64,000 bases of DNA from an uncultured Gemmatimonadales bacterium (GCA_963810185.1 CAWEMJ010000005.1:7931-71930), one strand, 5' to 3'; positions 5,401-55,055 are shown, counted from the stretch's first letter. Notes: generated by a model from the sequence alone, not told the origin. Numbers and translations are program-made.

Positions 5401-5493
5401 TGAAGGCGGGGCAGCGGGGCAGCAGGGCAGGGTGGCAGTCAACGTGCGTGTCGCTTCAGCGACATCAGCCGAGCCGCGGGTTCACCCGCGGGT

Positions 5494-20176: not shown

Positions 20177-20213
20177 ACGGCCCCGCTGCCCCGCGGCCCC
20201 GCGGTCCCGCCTG

Positions 20214-40193: not shown

Positions 40194-40985
40194 GTGCTGC
40201 TCCTGATCGGGCTCACCCAGGTGGCTCAGCACTGGGCGGGCGCCGTCTCCGTGGACCTGCCCCGGTTCTTCGAGGCGTTCCTCCCGCCGCACGACACCAC
40301 GGTGGGGCAGGACCCCTTCTTCCTGTTCGAGAACGTCCTCGGCCGCATCGCCGAATCGGGCAGCCGCCTGTCGCTCTACGCCGTGCCGGCCTTCCTCTGG
40401 TTCAGCACTCGCCTCTTCGCCAGCATCCGCACCTCGCTCAACCAGATGTACGACGTCAGCGTGCGCCCGCCGGTGCGGCGGCATTTCCTGGTCGGGATGC
40501 TCCTGAGCAAGTTGCGCGATGTCGCGATGGTCATCCTCACCCTCGGCGTGTTCGCGGCCAGCATCGCGATCACCACGCTCATCGGCATCGCGCGCGCCCG
40601 GGGCGAGGCCGGCGCGCCGTGGCTGGGGTTCTTCTTCTCGTCGTTCGGGCGGTGGATTCCGGAGGCCCTGGGGCTGACGCTCACCTTCACCCTCTTCTTC
40701 CTGATCTACAAGTACGCCTCTATCCGTCGCCTCGACACGCAGGCCGCCCTGGTGGCGTCCGCGTTCGGCGCCGCCGCCTTCGAACTCGCCAAGCACGTCT
40801 TTGCCGTGTACCTGGCGCGGATGGTGGCGGCGAGCTCGGTGCGGGTGGACTTCCAGCTCACGGCGGCCACCCTCACGGTGCTCTGGGTCTACTATACGGC
40901 GCTGGTGTTCCTGCTCGGCGGGGTCGTCGCGGAAACCTGGCAGCTCCGGACGATGCAACAGCAGCAGCGGGCCATTCTGACCTGA
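40194..40985 (+). CDS. YihY/BrkB-family membrane protein (true start upstream and unresolved)
   Basis: Family-like N-terminus (HVPFLASALTFDALLAAIPFVVLLL) continues in frame back to 40053, but no ATG/GTG/TTG occurs before 40194. Confidence 0.75.
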   Translation: MLLLIGLTQVAQHWAGAVSVDLPRFFEAFLPPHDTTVGQDPFFLFENVLGRIAESGSRLSLYAVPAFLWFSTRLFASIRTSLNQMYDVSVRPPVRRHFLVGMLLSKLRDVAMVILTLGVFAASIAITTLIGIARARGEAGAPWLGFFFSSFGRWIPEALGLTLTFTLFFLIYKYASIRRLDTQAALVASAFGAAAFELAKHVFAVYLARMVAASSVRVDFQLTAATLTVLWVYYTALVFLLGGVVAETWQLRTMQQQQRAILT

Positions 40986-41080: not shown

Positions 41081-44031
41081 CTACTGCGCGGTGTGGACCT
41101 CGACCACGAGGTTGCTCAGCTGGTCCGGTTTGTCCGGTTGAGCGGTGACCTGAAGAATGGACCCCGTGAGGCGCCGCGCCGAGAGATCTCGCGGATCCAC
41201 CTCGAGGGTGTAACGGCCCGGCTTGACTCCCAGCACATAGAAACTGCCGTCGGAGAAGGTGGCGATCGCCGTCTGCTTCCCGTTGGCCTTGTTGGTGAGC
41301 ACGAGCGTGACGTTCGGCAGCGGCGTGCCGTCGCAGACCACGCGTCCCTCGAGCACGGCGCCCGTCACCAGCGGCAGGTCGAGCTGGCGGTACGCGTTCG
41401 GCGGAGGCTGCAGGCTGGCGGAAGTGAACGCCGGCACGTACTGCGGATTGTCGAGGGTCGTCGAGTCGATCTGGACCAGCACCGGTTCGAACGCCGGAAT
41501 GTCCCAGACGTGGTACCGACCGAGGCTGTCGGTGCGCGCCGTGAAGGAACCGACGATGACCCGCACCCCGCCGACCCCGGGTTCGCCCGGGTCCTGCCTG
41601 CCGTTGGCATTGTCGTCCACGAACACGACGCCCGACACGCCTGAGCGCTGGAGGCCGGGGTTCGGATTGGCGGTGACGCGGCCCTGGTGCTTGTCGTAAA
41701 TGAGCGCGCCCTGCACCGTCTGGATGACGCCCCCCTGGCCGACCGTCGGCGCCACCGCGGTGGTGGTCGCCTGCAGGGTGGGCAGGTACGAGACCAGCGA
41801 AAACGTGAACGTCGTGCCGGGACGTCGCGGTGCCAGGCGGCACCACCCTCGATGCGGAGCGCCGGACCGAAGCTCTTCGCCACGGTGGCCGCCGCCAGGT
41901 TGAACCCGTCGCCACCGCCCGCCTCGAGGTCGCCCCGGAACCAGAGCCCGCCGAGCACCGAGCCCCAGGAGGGGCGGCCGTTGGCGTAGGCGGAGAGGCC
42001 GATGAACGACGCGCGGGACGCTTCGCCGACAGTGGGTGACCAGCCGCTCGAAGCGCACGTAGGGATAGAGCCGGACGCCGTCGGCCTGCACCGACGACTG
42101 CAGCCGCGCGCGGCTGGCGTCCATGTCCACCCCGTCATCGATCTCCGCGGTGCCCTGCAGGTAGAACGAGGTGAGGAAGGGGAGCGGGCGGAGGAACGCG
42201 TCGAAGAGCCACTGCGAGCGGCGCCCCTGCGGCGCGATCACCGACCGCGCGACCGTCTCGTCGAACGCGGTGTATCCCGCCGCGAGGCGGAAATTCAGCG
42301 AGGGTTCGAGGCGCACCGCGCCGCGAAGCCACCCGCTGCCGATCGCCTCGCCTTCCAGCGTGACCGAGTTGCCGATCAGCCCCGTGGCGACCGCGTAGGG
42401 ATGGATCAGGTCGGAGAGACTGTCCCGTGAGTACCCCTCCACGCCGCCGCGGACCGTGACCCGCCGGGAGAGGCCGTAGTGCAGGTCGGCGTTCAGCGCC
42501 CCGTTACAGAGCGTCGAGATGCACTCGCCCGCCGCGATGCCGTACTCGAACTGCTTGTACGGCAGCTGCTCGCTGACGCACGCGATAGGTCTGGTTGAAC
42601 CGGCGCACCTGACCCGTGGGGCCGTACGCGATGAAGTCCACCGGGTTTTCGCCGTAGCCCACCGGCAGCGTGATGGAATAGTCGCCGCCCGGGCCGATCG
42701 AGTCGAAGGCCACCAGCTGGCCGCCCGAGTACGCCTCGAGCTGCCACCCCGGCTCGAGCCGGCCGTAGTAGTCGAGCTGCCCCACGTACGAGGGGCGGAT
42801 GTACGGCGAGTTGGTCACCGCAACACCGCGGATGCCCGCGTAGCGCGGGCCGGTGAGTGTGGCGGTGCCGAGCGTGAGCTGCTTGACGTACTTGTTGTCG
42901 ATCCAGACGCCCTTCCACGAGGCCGCGAACTCCGACGTGCCGGCGTCCAGGCTGCCCAGGCTGCGCACGCCGACTTCGAGCGCGCCGCCCGCCACCTGCG
43001 CGCCCGAGTGCGAACCGGTAGGAGGACCCGCCCACCAGGTTGTCTGAGAGCGGGAACGCCACGTCGTAGTCGAGCACCAGCCCGTCCCACTTGGTCCGGG
43101 CCGTCCCGAGCGTGGTGTCGGGCCGCGCGCCGTAGCGCTCCGCCAGCAGGGCGCGCATCTGGTCCCGCCACATGCGGCGGGCCACCGGAAGCGAGTCGGG
43201 ATTGAGCACGGTGACCGCCAGGTCGGCCCAGCTGACTTCGAAGTCGAGCGTCCAGCATCGCTCCCGAGCGGGCTGCGTGGCCATGTACAGCTCGCCGTCC
43301 CGGAAAATGACGTCGGCGGCCCCCACCGGTACGCGCCGCGACCCGATCGTCACGCTGTCGCTTCCCGCCGCAATCCGGATGTCCTCGCCACTCGGCTCGA
43401 GCCGCGCCTCGAACACCCCCGCGGGCGAGAGCGTGTAGCTGATCTCCGCCAGGTCGAAGAACGCCGTGAGCGGCACGAGGGCCATCTCAGCGTCTCGATA
43501 GGCCGCCACCGTCCGGCTCACGAGGCGCCCGAGCGCGAGGTCGATGAGGACGGGCTCGGGGCCGGAGGGGCGGGGCAGCGGGGCGGCGGGGCTAGTCGCG
43601 GCTGGCGCCGCGGGCGCAGGCAGCGGGGCAGCGGGGCTGGCTGGCAGTTCAGGCTCAGCCCGGGCCAGGGGTGCCTCGACGGGCGGCTGGGGAGGCGGAG
43701 TCGGTGTTGGGCGCGGCGTTTGGGGTGCGAGGGTGGGTCGGAGCGCGCCGCGAGTGGGGCGGGGCAGCGGGGCAGCGGGGCCGGGGGGCGGCCCAGGCGT
43801 TGTCACGACCGCAACGGTCGGTGCCGCGGGGCGTGCTGGGGTCGGTGCGGGAAGTGGCTCGTAGGCGGTGTGGGGCACCGAGTCGGGCGCGGTGCGGACC
43901 GCGGTCGGCGGTGCAGGCCCGCGTGCCCTGTCGATCAGGGACACGATTTTCTCGCCGCCGACGAAGACGCCGACGGCAAAGAGCACGAACAACAGTGCAG
44001 CGACCAGCTTGGCCAAGAGCCCCACCAGCAT
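41081..44031 (-). pseudogene. Usher-sized outer-membrane-like protein of the pilus operon, about 4 frameshifts
   Basis: Stitched from ORFs 42493-44031, 42504-42995, 41081-42442 and 41365-42138, with switches near 43000, 42572, 42050 and 41825. N-terminal TM helix, Pro/Ala linker, beta-rich core, and C-terminal SdrD-B-like (VFVDDNANGRQDPGEPGVGGVRV) and CarboxypepD_reg-like domains. The usher assignment rests on size, position and N-domain pattern only. Confidence 0.55.
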
Positions 44032-44032
44032 G

Positions 44033-44553
44033 CTAGAGGTAGGTGATGGTCAGGATGATCGTCCCCTGGTAAATGCCGGGAGCTTGCGTCGGTGATGGAG
44101 TCACGGTGCCACCAAGATACACGAAAAAGTAGGGGTTTCCAGCGTTGCCGAAGCGCGCGTTGTTGACCCCGACCGCCGGGTTGAATGTCGTCCCGCCTCC
44201 GGGGCTGTCGTTGGTGCGCCGCCACCGCGCCGAATTGGCGGCGAAGCTGATCGGCATGTTGATGCCGGGGACCGCCTGGATGTTCGGGAGCTGGGTCGGC
44301 AGCGTGAACCGGATCTGGGTGAAGGCGTTCGCGGTGCCCGCCACGCGGACCTTGCCCGCGGCGGCGGTGTTCTGCACCACCGTCTTCGCGACGCCCCGGG
44401 TGCACGGTGGCAAAGTTGAGGCTCTGCAGGTTGGTAAAGGTGATGGCCGAGCCGACGACCAGCACCCGGATGTTCGCGGTCGTGGAAACCCCTTGGGCCG
44501 CGGCGGAGGCCGGGGCGAGGAGCATCAGCAACGGCCACGAGGAGACGCTTCAT
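44033..44553 (-). pseudogene. Fimbrial subunit C (DUF4402 / spore-coat-protein-U-like), 2 frameshifts
   Basis: MKRLLVAV | LLMLLAPASAAAQGVSTTANIRVLVVGSAITFTNLQSLNFATVHPG | VAKTVVQNTAAAGKVRVAG...IRFTLP...MPISFAANS...GIYQGTIILTITYL*. Its ATG overlaps the chaperone stop (ATGA). Confidence 0.6.
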
Positions 44554-45389
44554 CGGACCGTGAACTCCACGGAGTCCCGCACGGGAGGCGCCGGAAGCGG
44601 CAGCTTCGGCGGCAGGTCGGTCCGCTCGGTGGACACGCTGACCCGTGACCTTGTAGGTGCCCGGGCCGAGGGCGCCCACCGGCACAGCCACCCGCGGGTC
44701 GAGCGCGTAGTACACGGCCACCGGCCATTTCGTCCTGCCCCTTGAGCGGCGTCGCGTGGGTCCACCACCGACACCCGCGCCGTCCCGAGGTACGGCGCTG
44801 GTTCCGGTCCGCGTCAGCGGCACCCGGACGGCGACGGTGTCGTCCGCGAAGGACGCGCTGACGCGGCCCAGGGTGAGGCCCGTCGTCAGCGCGCCCTTCC
44901 GGTACACGACCGAGATGACCGTACGGACCTCGAGCGTGAGGCCGACGCTGATGGCGCTGGTGTCGGGCACGCCGGCCACCGGGATCGTGCCGCCCTTGGC
45001 GCCCACGATGAGCCGGGCCCAGTACTCTCCGTCCGGCAGGCCCTGCGGGGGTGACGCGAGGATGCGGATGGTCTGGCGTTCCTGCTGGCCGACCGTGACC
45101 CGGCGGGGAAAGGCCTGGAGCCAGGCGGTGGCGCCAGGTTGCCCGGCCGGCGCCGTGTCCGAGTCAGCTCCAGCGAGACGGAGCCGGCGGAATCGGTCGT
45201 CGGGTAGCCGAAGCCGAAGGAGACGCTGACCTCGACCGGCTGGTCGCTGGGATTGTAGAGCGTGATCGAGCCGGAGCGAGTCGCATGGCCGATGAACACC
45301 GCGTGCGGCGCCACGATGACTCCCTGCGCCAGCAGGGCGGAGGGAAGCAGCGCGAGCGTCGCGATCAACCAGCGGGCCGGGTGCGTCAT
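44550..45389 (-). pseudogene. PapD-like periplasmic pilus chaperone, 2-4 frameshifts
   Basis: MTHPARWLIATLALLPSALLAQGVIVAPHAVFIGHATRSGSITLYNPSDQPVEVSVSF... | ...WLQAFPRRVTVGQQERQTIRILASPPQGLPDGEYWARLIV... | ...VAVYYALDPRVAVPVGALGPGTYKVT | VSVSTER.... Confidence 0.6.
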
Positions 45390-45402
45390 CAGACAGCTCG
45401 AC

Positions 45403-45879
45403 TCAATTGAGAATGACCGTGAGCGATGATCGTGCCGGTGTAATTGCCGGCGCCGTTGGGTCGGGGCAGGGTTGACCCTGCCGCCGAGAAACGACCGTAC
45501 CGCTGCCCAGCCAGAGGGTGTAGGTGAACGGTGCGTTCGGGTCGAACGTCGGTCTGGCTGCCGATGGATGCCCTGCCGCGAAATACCGGCATCCGTGCTG
45601 GCAAACGAGATCGGCATCGTTGCGCCTGCCGGGCCGTTCATGACCATCGGCAGGGTGAAGCGCACGGTGACGCTTCGAAAGGACCCTGCGCCCGCTGATC
45701 CGAAACTGCCCGCTGTTGGCGGCATTCGGCTTCGAGACCGTCGTCGGGACTCCCGGGATCACGGTTCCAAAGCTCAGGTTCTGCGTGCCGATCACCGCCT
45801 GGGCGTGCAGCGGCCGGCGGTGCGGCAGAACAGCCGCCACGCCGAGGGTCAGTCAAGCGAGCAGGGACAGCAGACGCAT
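45403..45879 (-). pseudogene. Fimbrial subunit B, in-frame TGA at codon 9 plus about 5 frameshifts
   Basis: ATG at 45879: MRLLSLLA*LTLGVAAVLPHRRPLHAQAVIGTQNLSFGTVIPGV...QFRISG | AGSFRSVTVRFTLPMVMNGPAGATMPISFASTDAG | ... | GNYTGTII | LTVILN*. The TGA is at 45853-45855. Confidence 0.6.
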
Positions 45880-45953
45880 AGGGCCCGGAAGGGCGCGCCG
45901 GCGGCGCGGGTTAGCGCCCACACCGCCGGCGCCACCGCCTCACGGTGTCCGGA

Positions 45954-46470
45954 CTAGAGCCCGGTGTACACAACCGCCATGGTGACCGTGCCGTTGTACG
46001 GTGCCGGCGGCCTGGGCCACGGTGGGGGTCACGGTGGCGCCGAGCCACACGAAGACGCGTGCCGGCGCCGCCGAGGTTGGTCGTCACGGGGGCCGCGCTC
46101 GCCGTGAAGGCGGTCTGGCTCGCCTGGGGTGTTGGTGGCGAACTGGCCGCCGAGTCCAGGTGCCGATGGCCATGGTGTTGCCGGCAGGCCGTGTGCAGGG
46201 TGGCCGGCAGCGTGAAGGTCAGGATGACCTGCGCGCCAGCGCTGCCCGGCGATGCGTGAACCGGCCGGCGGTCGGCGGCGGTCGGGGCGATCGTCTTGCA
46301 CAATGCCCGGGAAGACGTTGCCGAAGTCGAGGCGACGCGGCGCCGGTGACGGTCAGCGGGGTCAGGACGGTGGCGGTGGCGGTGATGTTGGCGCTCTGGG
46401 CCTGGGCCACGGAGGCCCCGACGAGGGTGAGCGCCAGCACGGCGAGGGACAACTTCGAGGCGGTGGTCAT
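45954..46470 (-). pseudogene. Fimbrial subunit A, about 5-6 frameshifts
   Basis: ATG at 46470: MTTASKLSLAVLALTLVGASVAQAQSANITATATVLTPLTVTG | LDFGNVFPG | ...GAQVILTFTLPATL... | ...YNGTVTMAVVYTGL* (stop at 45954-45956). Confidence 0.55.
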
Positions 46471-46808: not shown

Positions 46809-46876
46809 GGGCGGGCGGGGCAGCGGGGCAGGGAGGCAGGGGGGCACCGACGGCAGGGCAGCGGGGCAGCGGGGCC
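46809..46876 (+). repeat. Degenerate GGGGCAGC-type G-rich block (plus-strand orientation)
   Basis: GGGCGGGGCAGCGGGGCAGGGAGGCAGGGGGGCACCGACGGCAGGGCAGCGGGGCAGCGGGGCC. Inverted relative to the array at 47029-47158. Confidence 0.85.
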
Positions 46877-47028
46877 GGTGAAATAGCGTCCACCCAGTCG
46901 AGTGCGGAGTGTGCATCAGCCCGGGGAAAGTCGGGGTCCGTGGACTCCCGACCACCGCATTCTGCCAGCCTCATCCAGCCCGATACCTGCAGCCTATTGC
47001 GCGTCTGGGGAAAACGCGCAACCTTCGC

Positions 47029-47158
47029 GCTGCCCCGCTGCCCCGCTGCCCCGCTGCCCCGCTGCCCCGCTGCCCCGCTGCCCCGCTGCCCCGCTGCCCC
47101 GCTGCCCCGCTGCCCCGCTGCCCCGCTGCCCCGCTGCCCCGCTGCCCCGCTGCCCCGC
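47029..47158 (+). repeat. Perfect octamer tandem array, GCTGCCCC x 16
   Basis: Direct read, 130 nt with no variant units. The complement is (GGGGCAGC)16. Confidence 0.97.
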
Positions 47159-47315: not shown

Positions 47316-48986
47316 ATGGCCATCGCTCTCGCACGCCGGTACCGCCCACGGCGCTTCGCCGACCTCCTGGTGCAGGACCATGTCGCCGCCGCCCTCCGCG
47401 GTGCCATCGCCAGCGGGCGGCTCGGCCACGGCTACCTCCTGACCGGCCCCCGCGGCGTCGGCAAGACCACCGCCGCCCGCATCCTCGCCATGGCGCTCAA
47501 CTGCGAGCGCCGCGAGACCGTCACCCCCGCCGGCGAACCCTGCGGCGAGTGCGAGAACTGCCTCCGCATCTGGAACGGCTCCGCCAATCTCGACGTGATC
47601 GAAATCGACGCCGCCAGCAACCGCGGCGTCGACGACGCCCGCGAGCTCCGCGAGCGCGCCATGTACGCCGCCTCCCAGGAGGGGCACCACAAGGTGTACA
47701 TCGTGGACGAGGCGCACATGCTCACCCGCGAGGCGTGGAACGCGCTCCTCAAGATCCTCGAGGAGCCGCCCCCGGGCGTGGTGTTCGTCTTCGCCACCAC
47801 CGAGCCGGCCAAGATCTTCAATACCGCCGCGCCGGTGCTCTCCCGGCTGCAGCGCTTCGACTTCCGCCGCATCGGGCCCGCCGCCATCCGCACCCGCCTC
47901 ACGCAGGTCCTCGCCGAGGAAAAGCTCGCGGCGGACGACGACGCCCTGACCCTCATCGCGCGGCACGCCGACGGCGGCATGCGCGACGCGCTCTCCGTGC
48001 TCGATCAGTGCCTCTCCTTCGGCGAGGGCGCCGTCACCGCCGAGCGGGTGCGCGAAGTCCTCGGCCTCGTCGGCGATGAGCAGTACGCCGAGGTGCTGCG
48101 GGTGGTCACCGAGCGCGATCCCGCCGGGGTGTTTCCCCTCGTGGCGCGGCTGCTCGACGCCGGCGCCGACCTCGCGGAGTTCCTGAACGGCACCGGCGAG
48201 ATGTTGCGTTCGCTGATGATGCTGCAGGTCGGCGTCGACCCCGAGGAAATCACCGAGTCGCTGCGCGCCGCCCTGGTGGCATACCGCGACCAGCTCACCG
48301 AGGGCGACGTTCTCCGGATGCTCCGGCTCCTCGCCGAGAGCGAAACCGCCGTGCGCCGGAGCGGCAACGCCCGCCTCGCGGTGGAAACCCTGCTGCTCCG
48401 CTGGACCATGATGGACCGGACGGTGGACCTCGCCGCCCTCATCGCCGGCGGGTCGACCGGCCCCGCTGCCCCGCTGCCCACGCCCGCGGCGCGAGCCGCG
48501 CAGGCCCCGCTGCCCCGCCGCGCCGCGAAGGCGGCGCCTGCGGCCCCCGGCCCCGCTGCCTCGCTGCCCCCTCGCGCGTCGGCCGCGCCGGCATCGGCGC
48601 CTGTCGTCGGCCTTGAAGCCGGACCCCTGGCGGCCGCATGGGATACGGTCGTCGAGCGCGGCCGCGCGCAAGGGTCCTTTTTGGGTGCCGCCCTCGCCGT
48701 CTGCAAGCCGGTGCGGATCGACGGCCAGGTGGTGCTGCTCGAACTCACCGAGGAGAATCCGATGTACCGGGAGGCGCTCGATCGGCAGGCCGCCGCCGTC
48801 GAGGAGATCCTCTCGGCGCTCGCCGGGACGCCCGCGCGGATGAAAGTGGCGCCCGCTGCCTCGGCGGCGCGCCCGGAGCGCCTGACCGAGGAAGGCGCCC
48901 GCGCGGAGCGGCTCACCAAGGTGCGGAAGAAGGACCCCTCGCTCGATGTGGCGGCCACCGTGCTCGACCTCGAGGTCCTGGACTAG
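47316..48986 (+). CDS. dnaX: DNA polymerase III subunit gamma/tau
   Basis: ATG at 47316: MAIALARRYRPRRFADLLVQDHV...GYLLTGPRGVGKTT...CGECENC...YIVDEAHML. The ATG at 47244 would overlap ffs. Confidence 0.95.
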   Translation: MAIALARRYRPRRFADLLVQDHVAAALRGAIASGRLGHGYLLTGPRGVGKTTAARILAMALNCERRETVTPAGEPCGECENCLRIWNGSANLDVIEIDAASNRGVDDARELRERAMYAASQEGHHKVYIVDEAHMLTREAWNALLKILEEPPPGVVFVFATTEPAKIFNTAAPVLSRLQRFDFRRIGPAAIRTRLTQVLAEEKLAADDDALTLIARHADGGMRDALSVLDQCLSFGEGAVTAERVREVLGLVGDEQYAEVLRVVTERDPAGVFPLVARLLDAGADLAEFLNGTGEMLRSLMMLQVGVDPEEITESLRAALVAYRDQLTEGDVLRMLRLLAESETAVRRSGNARLAVETLLLRWTMMDRTVDLAALIAGGSTGPAAPLPTPAARAAQAPLPRRAAKAAPAAPGPAASLPPRASAAPASAPVVGLEAGPLAAAWDTVVERGRAQGSFLGAALAVCKPVRIDGQVVLLELTEENPMYREALDRQAAAVEEILSALAGTPARMKVAPAASAARPERLTEEGARAERLTKVRKKDPSLDVAATVLDLEVLD

Positions 48987-50232: not shown

Positions 50233-50723
50233 ATGTCCGGTGCGTCCAGCTGGTCACTCGCAGAGGCCGACCACGACAAGCTCGTGGTCATGCTGAACGC
50301 GTTCCTGCGCGAGTCGAATGCGCGGACCGCCCTGCTGGTCGATCGCACCGGCCAGATGGTGGCGACGGCGGGCGAACCCCCCGAGTTCGACCCGACCACC
50401 TTCGCCTCGCTCGCGGCGGCCGACTTCAGCGCCAACGACCAGCTGGCCCGCCTCATCGGCGAGCCGGAATTCGGCAGCCTGTTCCACCAGGGGAAAACGC
50501 CTCGATGTACCTCGCCGACATTGCGCGGCGGGTCATCCTCGTGGTGTTGTTCGATACCCGCACCACGCTGGGCCTGGTCAAGCTGCGGGTCCGCGGGACG
50601 GTGGGAGACCTCTCGCAGGTCTTCACGGAAATGTTCGCGCGGGACGGCGGCGTGGCGCCGCGGGTCGAGCAGGACTTCCTCGGCGACGCCGAGGACGAGA
50701 TCGACAAACTCTTCGGCGAATAG
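50233..50723 (+). CDS. mglB: MglB (Roadblock/LC7) GTPase-activating protein, one frameshift in GGGGAAAA near 50495
   Basis: [32 protein letters not shown]...[23 protein letters not shown] | [33 protein letters not shown]. Confidence 0.75.
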
Positions 50724-53960: not shown

Positions 53961-55055
53961 GTGGCACAGCGGGATTTTTACCAGGTCCTCGGCGTGCCCG
54001 ACTCGGCCACCACGGTCGAGATCAAGAAGTCCTACCGCCGGCTGGCCAAGCAGCACCACCCGGACGCCAACCCGAACAACCCGGCCGCAGCCGAGCGCTT
54101 CAAGGAAATCTCCGAAGCGCATTCGGTGCTGTCCGACGCCGAGAAGCGCAAGAAGTACGACCAGATGCGGCGACTGGGGGCCTTCGAGCCGCGCGCCGGG
54201 CGCGGGGCGGCGGGGCAGCGGGGCGGCGCGGCCGGTGGGCAGGGACAGACGGCCGAGAACTTCGAGTTCGGGGATCTAGGCGGCCTCGGCGACATCTTCT
54301 CGTCGATTTTCGGCCGGGGGCGCCGCGAGGAGCCGGTGGCCGAACATCTCGAGGCCCACGTCGAGGTGCCGTTCCGCGTGGCCATGTTCGGCGGCAAGGT
54401 CCCTGTCACCCTTCCCGTGACTGAGGCCTGCGCCACCTGCAAGGGCACCGGAGCCGCGGCGGGCGCCAAGGTCGCCACGTGCGACGAGTGCAACGGCCGG
54501 GGCTCGATTTCCTTCGGTCAGGGGGGCTTTGCCGTCAATCGCCCCTGTCCCAAGTGCCGCGGCAAGGGCACAGTCCCCTCGGAGCGCTGCCCGACCTGCG
54601 GCGGGGCGGGCGATACCCGCATCGAGCGGCGCGTCATGATCACGGTGCCGCCGCTGACGGAGAGCGGCGCCAAGGTGCGGTTGAAGGGCCAGGGGCAGCC
54701 GGGGCGGGGCGGCGGGCAGGCGGGCGACCTGATCGTGGTGTTCACCGTCGAGCCGGATCGCTTCTTCCAGCGGGACGGGCTCGACCTGCTGTGCGAAGTG
54801 CCGATTAATCTCGCGCAGGCGCTGCTCGGGACCCGGCTACGGGTCCGGACGCTGGATGGAAAGAAGCTCGTCCTCAAGGTACCGCCCGGTACGCAGCCGG
54901 GACGGAAATTCCGCATCAAGGGGCAGGGGTTGGAGCGCGGGGAGCGGCGGGGAGATCAGATCGTGGCGGTGCGGGTGGAGTTGCCCGAGCATCTGACGCC
55001 CGAGCAGGAAGCGCTGGCCCGGCAGTTGGCCGAGTCCGCGGGGCTCAAGTACTAG
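53961..55055 (+). CDS. dnaJ: Molecular chaperone DnaJ
   Basis: DFYQVLGV...IKKSYRRLAKQHHPDAN; G/F region; four CxxCxGxG motifs (CATCKGTG, CDECNGRG, CPKCRGKG, CPTCGGAG). Confidence 0.95.
   Translation: MAQRDFYQVLGVPDSATTVEIKKSYRRLAKQHHPDANPNNPAAAERFKEISEAHSVLSDAEKRKKYDQMRRLGAFEPRAGRGAAGQRGGAAGGQGQTAENFEFGDLGGLGDIFSSIFGRGRREEPVAEHLEAHVEVPFRVAMFGGKVPVTLPVTEACATCKGTGAAAGAKVATCDECNGRGSISFGQGGFAVNRPCPKCRGKGTVPSERCPTCGGAGDTRIERRVMITVPPLTESGAKVRLKGQGQPGRGGGQAGDLIVVFTVEPDRFFQRDGLDLLCEVPINLAQALLGTRLRVRTLDGKKLVLKVPPGTQPGRKFRIKGQGLERGERRGDQIVAVRVELPEHLTPEQEALARQLAESAGLKY

Follow-up and report, generated by a model that had tools for sequence, protein, structure and literature searches.

A five-gene operon on the minus strand (46470-41081) of a 64,000-nucleotide stretch of DNA from an uncultured Gemmatimonadales bacterium (GCA_963810185.1 CAWEMJ010000005.1:7931-71930; hereafter the window, with a G+C content of ~69%) is shattered by frame breaks, and these breaks are probably a consensus artefact of mixed strains, in an operon of the chaperone-usher (CU) type that is intact in nature. 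The operon consists of five sets of open reading frames (ORFs), which follow each other as pilin A, pilin B, chaperone, pilin C and a protein of ~980 aa, and the start of C shares an ATGA overlap with the chaperone stop. An earlier note on this DNA, made from the sequence alone, had given the coordinates and strand of the five genes, the ATGA overlap, the C-terminal strands of the subunits and their RFTLP...MPISFA core, and all of these are present; its statement that none of the five genes reads in one frame is likewise borne out (0 of 5).

Breaks were counted by frameshift-aware protein-to-DNA alignment to intact orthologues. Subunit A carries 10 events, all of them +1, and after repair the protein can be aligned over its full length with the orthologues of L002 and L005. 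There are 8 events in B (7 of +1, 1 of +2), 5 in the chaperone gene (4 of +1, 1 of +2) and 2 in C, both +1, while the usher-like gene has 5 of +1, one +2 and 1-2 of -1, including some compensating pairs. The earlier estimate of about 2 frame switches holds for C; those for A, B, the chaperone and the usher were too low (10, 8, 5, and 6 insertions with 1-2 deletions, respectively). Over the whole operon 29-31 insertion events stand against 1-2 deletions, and by our own arithmetic 31 of 33 events in one direction corresponds to a binomial p of ~7e-8. The density of events is highest in A and B (~1 per 55-60 nt) and lowest in the usher gene (~1 per 490 nt), with C an exception to any simple density trend. 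Examples of inserted bases are those at 46332, 46254, 45811, 45493, 45161, 44646, 44402, 42578 and 42037. The flanking genes FBA, PGI, YtxH, BrkB, dnaX, recR and others each lie in a single frame, and a tblastn search with L002 proteins over 33.4-52 kb found all flanking genes in one frame except an MglB/Roadblock-like gene; the breaks of the operon are therefore clustered far beyond chance. A crude six-frame coding hidden Markov model, which also flags ordinary gene junctions, was discarded as evidence of frameshifts and served only to nominate the kinase gene described below.

Intact counterparts of the operon are found in related genomes, where the earlier note had proposed to look for them: in L092, L001, L002 and ~80 further loci, the orthologues are syntenic. 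The Logan contig L092, with ~94.5% nucleotide identity to the window, has open frames for A (166 aa), B (155 aa) and the chaperone (277 aa), and all of the 27 indels that separate the two add bases to the window, often where the sequence on either side is the same. The operon of L001, 88% identical at the nucleotide level, is intact and syntenic; pairwise alignment gave 24 indels, in 20 of which the window has 1-2 additional bases, against only one single-base deletion. Both L001 and L002 hold the same genes in the same order and with open frames, in the same neighbourhood (dnaX, then A, B, chaperone, C and usher, then BrkB, YtxH and FBA), and the large protein has full-length Gemmatimonadales homologues that are up to 88% identical (P0001). 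Scanning the representative genomes of GTDB yielded 80 loci, mostly from Gemmatimonadales, with a minority from Krumholzibacteriota, Longimicrobiaceae, Myxococcaceae, Polaromonas, Ramlibacter and Rhodospirillales; the best match to the window among the representatives scanned was 76%. Among JGI metagenome contigs there was no near-identical strain, none being closer than 77-82%.

Once the surplus bases are taken out, the genes read through without a stop, except for one TGA in subunit B. The repaired genes show 83-91% amino-acid identity to those of L001, with ratios of non-synonymous to synonymous substitution (dN/dS) of 0.16-0.33. When amino-acid changes private to the window or to the L001 lineage were counted with L002 as outgroup, the four comparable genes (B, chaperone, C and usher) all had fewer in the window (2 v 7, 4 v 16, 6 v 11 and 22 v 29). 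There is hence no excess of non-synonymous change of the kind that relaxed selection would leave in the window lineage, nor do the indels form a mutational spectrum, with insertions and deletions mixed independently of codon phase. These results bear on a genuine recent pseudogenisation, in which the operon of this lineage would have been inactivated and would be decaying through frameshifts and one nonsense mutation. All five genes are indeed broken and one in-frame TGA is present, and surface-fibre loci are commonly lost or phase-switched. The bacterial indel spectrum is, however, deletion-biased, the opposite of ~30 insertions against 1-2 deletions; 30 neutral indels should have come with hundreds of unconstrained substitutions; the insertions respect codon phase; and an identical signature is seen in an unrelated gene of the window and in the metagenome-assembled genome (MAG) of another species, L068 (both below). 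Since ~30 frameshifts are nearly all insertions and constraint is unrelaxed, we reject mutational decay, and consider pseudogenisation very improbable. The earlier note had put forward two possibilities, a recently inactivated system or a strain-variable locus with a chimeric consensus; the almost exclusive insertions, the unrelaxed selection and a bias towards third codon positions speak against the former, and the evidence favours the latter.

The nature of the insertions was examined by listing, for each +1 event, every base whose removal gives back the best local match to the orthologue. For 20 of 28 events the tied removals concern a pair of unlike neighbouring bases at a third codon position, and the amino acid is the same whichever is removed, as in ACT[CG]GAC, GTC[A]CGG, GTG[C]GTC and GCC[G]TAC. 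Such synonymous third-position doublets thus amount to 71%, against 46% for random insertion into the repaired genes (p=0.005), and insertions of homopolymer type are 1 of 28 against 28% expected. A Ser/Thr kinase gene with TolB-like and tetratricopeptide repeat regions (3694-1344, minus strand; orthologues of ~784 aa) is shattered like the operon: set against an orthologue of 84% identity, it has ~10 +1 events and 1-2 of -1, mostly just after the third codon base. In L068 (CAWHXS010000013.1, MFD02242.bin.2.15), a deposited Nanopore MAG of a different Gemmatimonadales species, the orthologous operon has 25 +1 events, one +2 and one -1, which cluster at 4.4-10.3 kb of the 16.4-kb locus between nearly clean flanks; third-position doublets account for 17 of the 25 +1 events (p=0.014), and homopolymer-type insertions for 1 of 25 (p=0.005). 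For the window and L068 combined, doublets make up 37 of 53 events (p=4e-4) and homopolymer-type insertions 2 of 53 (p=1e-5, ~27% being expected). MAGs of the project behind L068 were made from Nanopore reads only, with metaFlye assembly and one round of Medaka, and soil microdiversity limited their recovery (PMC12313526). The closest long contigs to the window come from this pipeline; the window's own pipeline is not known to be the same.

A sequencer is blind to codon phase and polymorphism is not, so we read the events as single-nucleotide polymorphisms (SNPs) between strains, with both alleles kept. The window would be a consensus drawn from at least two co-assembled strains, which diverge at a variable surface locus. 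At many SNPs both alleles would stand next to each other in this consensus ('XY' where X or Y belongs), and the surplus base looks like a +1 insertion. A +2 event would stem from a tri-allelic SNP or from neighbouring SNPs, and events at second positions, such as A[T]C and A[G]C, from non-synonymous ones. We infer that a polisher error model in which deletions are cheaper than substitutions could make 'XY' the best fit to both read populations. With L068 and the window both affected, strain microdiversity appears to have a recurrent hot spot at this locus, which would make it one of false pseudogenes too.

Two further explanations were weighed against this mixed-strain consensus. Ordinary random long-read errors in a low-coverage or unpolished stretch, unrelated to strain polymorphism, would agree with the patchiness of the breaks (in the operon, in the kinase gene and, as one -1, in a G-run at 50489), and the deletions that are present lie in homopolymer contexts, as is typical for Nanopore. 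Such errors should nevertheless be rich in homopolymer extensions and, for Nanopore, in deletions, the reverse of the scarcity of homopolymer-type events reported above, and a sequencer, having no knowledge of codons, would not concentrate insertions at synonymous third positions as is seen here; random error is accordingly an unlikely source. Alternatively, the breaks could be biological and tolerated, through programmed recoding, transcriptional slippage or a hypermutable contingency locus linked to an octamer repeat. A perfect 16.4-copy octamer array does lie upstream of the operon, with more arrays inside the usher linker, and the same operon is affected in two MAGs. Against this, the ~30 sites have no common slippery motif and none is in a repeat, the short-read assemblies of the close relatives L001 and L092 are open at all of these sites, and the unrelated kinase gene has the same events; we give tolerated breaks hardly any credence.

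All breaks in the operon are indels except the TGA at 45853-45855. It occupies codon 9 of B, where L092 has TGC (Cys) and L001 TAC. The earlier note was right about the presence of this in-frame stop and mistaken in deriving it from TGG, as the TGC of L092 implies a single C-to-A change. An origin of the TGA as an indel artefact was tried and dropped, as no nearby single-base removal restores a reading like that of a signal peptide, and it stands as a substitution. It may be either a true nonsense allele of one strain or a miscall in the consensus. The argument for decay that had been built on this codon is weak, since it concerns one substitution in a stretch with a demonstrably unreliable consensus, and the TGA cannot carry the decay hypothesis alone.

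Assignment of the operon to the CU class begins with its subunits. Pfam searches with hand-repaired A, B and C gave DUF4402 (PF14352) with E values of 1e-5 to 8e-4; in bit scores the repaired window protein B (26.4) exceeds the cut-off of 25.2, and A (20.5) and C (20.9) fall below it. Among orthologous subunits 35 of 36 match this family, the best at 3e-22, in support of the three paralogous DUF4402 subunits that had been proposed for a CU-like operon. The accompanying equation with spore-coat-protein-U (SCPU) or archaic pilins fails: SCPU (PF05229) matches 7 of 36 subunits, all with E values of at least 0.18 and none significantly, and mature A, B and C contain no cysteine, so the invariant disulphide-forming Cys pair of archaic pilin domains (PMC4654587) is absent. 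Alignment of the subunits shows a conserved C-terminal strand (G-x-Y-x-G-T...Y), and A and C have N-terminal extensions of ~20 residues with alternating hydrophobic residues, where B is gapped. The extension of A, SANITATATVLTPLTVTG, is a candidate donor strand, and as far as the alignment goes the extensions and the C-terminal strand would be compatible with an incomplete immunoglobulin (Ig) fold that is completed by the donor strand of a neighbour. Subunit C is found only in the clade of the window.

A model of the chaperone was computed with AlphaFold2 (AF2) from P0065, which is 93% identical to the repaired window protein, and 39 homologues. The model, with a predicted local distance difference test score (pLDDT) of 85, has two beta-sandwich domains, consistent with a periplasmic chaperone of two Ig-like domains (the PapD fold). 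Its best PDB matches in Foldseek are SafB, YadV, CsuC, DraB, CfaA, CupB2, FimC, PapD and Caf1M (E 1e-8 to 1e-6), which span CU chaperones of all three pathways; the fold thus agrees with the earlier prediction of a PapD-like protein, and JGI names several homologues 'P pilus assembly chaperone PapD'. Pfam gave no match to the repaired window chaperone at E<=0.1, and PapD_N (PF00345) matches 13 of 40 members of the family, all below the gathering score, which is passed only by a distant Ramlibacter homologue (25.3 vs 23 bits). Invariant residues include R108 on the predicted strand 104-111, P63 beside strand 52-60 and Y122 at the start of the long strand 120-132, with strand identities assigned by order only and without three-dimensional superposition. 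We compared these with two traits of archaic and alternative CU chaperones, a conserved F1 arginine that anchors the subunit C-terminus and an invariant proline kink in D1. R108 (predicted F1) and Y122 (predicted start of G1) recall Arg89 and Tyr116 of the archaic chaperone CsuC (PMC4654587).

The large protein was modelled with AF2 from P0001 and 46 homologues (pLDDT 79); P0001 is 88% identical to the window protein. The DSSP strand order of the model runs through 6 strands, a plug of ~70 aa, 18 strands and 2 beta-sandwich domains, the plug being a lower-confidence six-strand insert at 418-485. The P0001 model therefore displays the architecture of an usher, with an N-terminal domain (NTD), a plugged 24-strand barrel and C-terminal domains (CTDs). 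Foldseek places FimD and PapC first, with E values of 5e-28 to 1e-21 over ~700-900 aligned columns, and other barrels (LptD, Occ porins) match only from E 2.6e-5; the translocation domains alone give template modelling (TM) scores of 0.50-0.55. These matches vindicate the earlier description of the protein as usher-like, and its other elements were also recovered: the N-terminal helix, the Pro/Ala linker with its octamer arrays (GCGGGGCA, at 43570-43637 and 43759-43789) and the C-terminal SdrD_B and CarboxypepD_reg domains, the last two being the only Pfam matches on the large protein. The Pfam Usher family (PF00577) matches 1 of 47 members of the large-protein family, at E 0.032, and membership cannot be claimed.

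At the level of fold and operon, the locus is supported as a CU system; by sequence, membership of Usher, SCPU and, for this clade, PapD_N fails. The models establish the folds of the chaperone and usher, whereas the assembly mechanism and subunit roles that follow are inferred, the roles of A and B by analogy with known CU pili (PMC4654587). Sec-exported DUF4402 subunits would be captured in the periplasm by the PapD-fold chaperone, delivered to the outer-membrane usher (NTD, 24-strand plugged barrel and two CTDs) and joined into a polymer through donor-strand exchange. Subunit A is the candidate major subunit, which would polymerise; B, lacking the extension, may be the distal tip or the first subunit assembled; and C is a candidate adaptor or minor subunit. 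It is also conceivable that the operon is real and makes no pilus, with the usher-fold barrel exporting or anchoring the DUF4402 proteins of a non-polymeric surface layer or adhesin coat, or serving another role in secretion. The missing Pfam Usher and SCPU membership would fit such a role, as would CTDs that are SdrD_B-like and transthyretin-like and so differ from those of annotated ushers. The combination of a full usher architecture, a PapD-fold chaperone and multiple small paralogous subunits is nonetheless the CU signature, and the conserved C-terminal G-x-Y-x-G-T...Y strands and the N-terminal extensions in 2 of 3 subunits point the same way; we regard a non-pilus function as quite unlikely.

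Several observations weigh against an intact CU operon obscured by a mixed-strain consensus. The retention of both alleles is deduced from sequence statistics; the enrichment for codon phase is significant but moderate (71% vs 46%); and about 1/4 of the insertions are at second codon positions, which requires non-synonymous SNPs. The TGA substitution is left unexplained by the doublet model and could be a genuine nonsense allele of one strain. When the alignments of chaperone, subunits and usher were run as profiles against the PDB, no pilin, chaperone or usher was matched significantly, and we know of no fibre ever observed for this family.

The classical CU pili, type 1 Fim (FimC/FimD) and P pili (PapD/PapC), share with the window family the usher order of NTD, strands 1-6, plug, strands 7-24 and two CTDs, and the operon logic of pilins, chaperone and usher; the chaperone model matches FimC and PapD. 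They have no detectable sequence similarity to the window family, and their subunits belong to the Fimbrial family, whereas those of the window are DUF4402 proteins without a two-domain adhesin. Classical ushers also have a normal signal peptide, in contrast to the long helix and Pro/Ala spacer of ~120 aa in the window clade, whose CTDs score as SdrD_B and CarboxypepD_reg. Archaic (sigma) CU pili, such as Csu of Acinetobacter baumannii and CupE of Pseudomonas aeruginosa (PMC4654587, PMC9452303, PMC10104325), likewise have several small paralogous pilins and a wide non-enterobacterial distribution, and CsuC is among the top chaperone matches. They differ in having SCPU domains and the Cys pair, both absent from the window subunits, and the window's usher is outside the Usher profile and its tip candidate B is single-domain.

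The same gene order is found on plasmid 2 of Polaromonas sp. JS666 (NC_007950.1, 71998-67148), which encodes a DUF4402 protein, a hypothetical protein, a second DUF4402 protein, a chaperone annotated as 'fimbria/pilus periplasmic chaperone' and a large protein that RefSeq calls 'carboxypeptidase-like regulatory domain-containing protein' and not an usher. This large protein is 66% identical to that of Ramlibacter (L080), which in turn is ~22-26% identical to the Gemmatimonadales ushers. The Ramlibacter operon combines DUF4402 subunits at 3e-22 with a chaperone above the PapD_N gathering score. The Polaromonas copy, also uncharacterised, differs from the window operon in being plasmid-borne and IS6-flanked, and in an usher with an ordinary N-terminus and a single C-terminal region. 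In the surrounding interval (L093, NC_007950.1 62660-74260) the operon sits between two IS6 transposase genes on a conjugative plasmid, which suggests mobility as a composite transposon. Relatives of the Polaromonas operon also occur in Novosphingobium, Sphingopyxis and Pseudoalteromonas.

In all, the family comprises 3198 clusters at 50% identity (E<=1e-30) and extends across Gemmatimonadota, as well as Proteobacteria, Myxococcaceae and Krumholzibacteriota, including conjugative plasmids. The order subunit(s), chaperone, (C), usher is kept in loci whose contig reaches far enough upstream, and loci L003-L082 fall into two layouts, with or without C. In the window clade C stands between the chaperone and an usher of ~980 aa with a Pro/Ala spacer; most other Gemmatimonadales lack C and have ushers of ~850 aa with ordinary signal peptides. 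Some loci carry two or three A-type genes in tandem. NCBIfam has no name for any of the Gemmatimonadales proteins, a full-text literature search found no paper on DUF4402 or PF14352, and a literature search for CU systems in Gemmatimonadetes, or for CU systems found with Foldseek, returned nothing relevant. Taken together, these data lead us to view the operon as conserved in soil Gemmatimonadales and as a member of a large, uncharacterised CU branch, with DUF4402 pilins that lack the archaic Cys pair and an usher invisible to PF00577.

The ~850-aa homologues have an ordinary signal peptide directly before the NTD, which marks the long helix and Pro/Ala spacer as a clade-specific addition. Within this uncharacterised CU branch, the usher of the window clade might stay in the inner membrane, with an uncleaved helix and the spacer of ~120 residues tethering the outer-membrane barrel across the periplasm. 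Spacers of the TonB type offer an analogy for such an envelope-spanning usher, a proposal that we make tentatively and hold to be rather doubtful.

Table 1. Features of the window, with positions counted from its first nucleotide.
Feature	Position	Strand	Description or basis
Subunit A	46470-45954	minus	First gene; DUF4402 pilin-like; signal peptide; 10 +1 insertions
Subunit B	45879-45403	minus	DUF4402 pilin-like; 8 insertion events and in-frame TGA
In-frame TGA	45853-45855	minus	Codon 9 of B, within the signal peptide
Chaperone	45389-44550	minus	277 aa; signal peptide; predicted two-domain PapD-like fold; 5 insertion events
Subunit C	44553-44033	minus	DUF4402 pilin-like; N-terminal extension; 2 insertion events
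Usher-like protein	44031-41081	minus	~981 aa after repair; 6 insertion events and 1-2 deletions
N-terminal hydrophobic helix of usher	aa 2-36, ~44028-43924	minus	P0001 model
Disordered Pro/Ala spacer with octamer arrays	aa 37-~155, ~43923-43565	minus	P0001 model (37-152 there)
Usher NTD-like alpha/beta domain	~43560-43125	minus	Model residues 161-300
24-strand barrel, plug between strands 6 and 7	~43120-41690	minus	DSSP strand order in model
Two C-terminal beta-sandwiches, SdrD_B-like and CarboxypepD_reg-like	~41650-41084	minus	Model and Pfam
Octamer array sites	47028-47158, 46815-46876, 43570-43638, 43759-43782, 4506, 5406-5429		Two-unit probe
Octamer array sites, continued	16403, 19705, 20179-20202, 48459-48518, 54202-54225		Two-unit probe

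The window is dotted with tandem arrays of the octamer GCGGGGCA/TGCCCCGC: a two-unit probe gave 33 matches where 0.02 were expected. The perfect 16.4-copy array (47028-47158) fills part of the gap between dnaX and the operon. Other octamer arrays lie at the same place in relatives, with 7.8 copies of GCGGGGAA in L003 and 5.5 degenerate copies in L002, and the short-read contig L092 ends ~80 nt before the array. These repeats may represent a microsatellite spread through the genome, a contingency repeat or a hazard for assembly. A scan for sigma-70 promoters upstream of the operon gave no match, and terminator-like matches in the scan were at chance level only. Next to the usher gene, a BrkB/YihY-like gene (40347-40985, plus strand) has 29 window-unique residues among 200 aligned with L001 and L002, against 1-5 in each of the other flanking genes. 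A compensated frameshift in this gene was ruled out, the unique residues being scattered substitutions with no indels; they may mark the edge of a recombined or strain-variable tract. The MglB/Roadblock-LC7-like gene (50233-50720, plus strand), which adjoins a small Ras-like GTPase gene, has a single -1 near 50489; its context, CC[A]GGGG, is that of a homopolymer-type deletion, an error class other than that of the operon insertions.

For long-read MAGs these results carry a warning, in that at strain-variable loci a consensus can turn SNPs into +1 insertions. The false pseudogenes fall in ecologically interesting genes, such as those for surface structures and signalling kinases, and the same defect is present in a MAG deposited in GenBank (L068). 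The artefact is useful to know and is not biology; what the operon adds to the diversity of CU systems is real but unsurprising. Surveys of CU systems rest on sequence profiles of the usher and chaperone, and a family of >3000 clusters, annotated as carboxypeptidase-like, escapes them, so that a common surface-fibre system of soil bacteria is missing from the inventories. Cultured carriers, such as Polaromonas sp. JS666, make this system testable.

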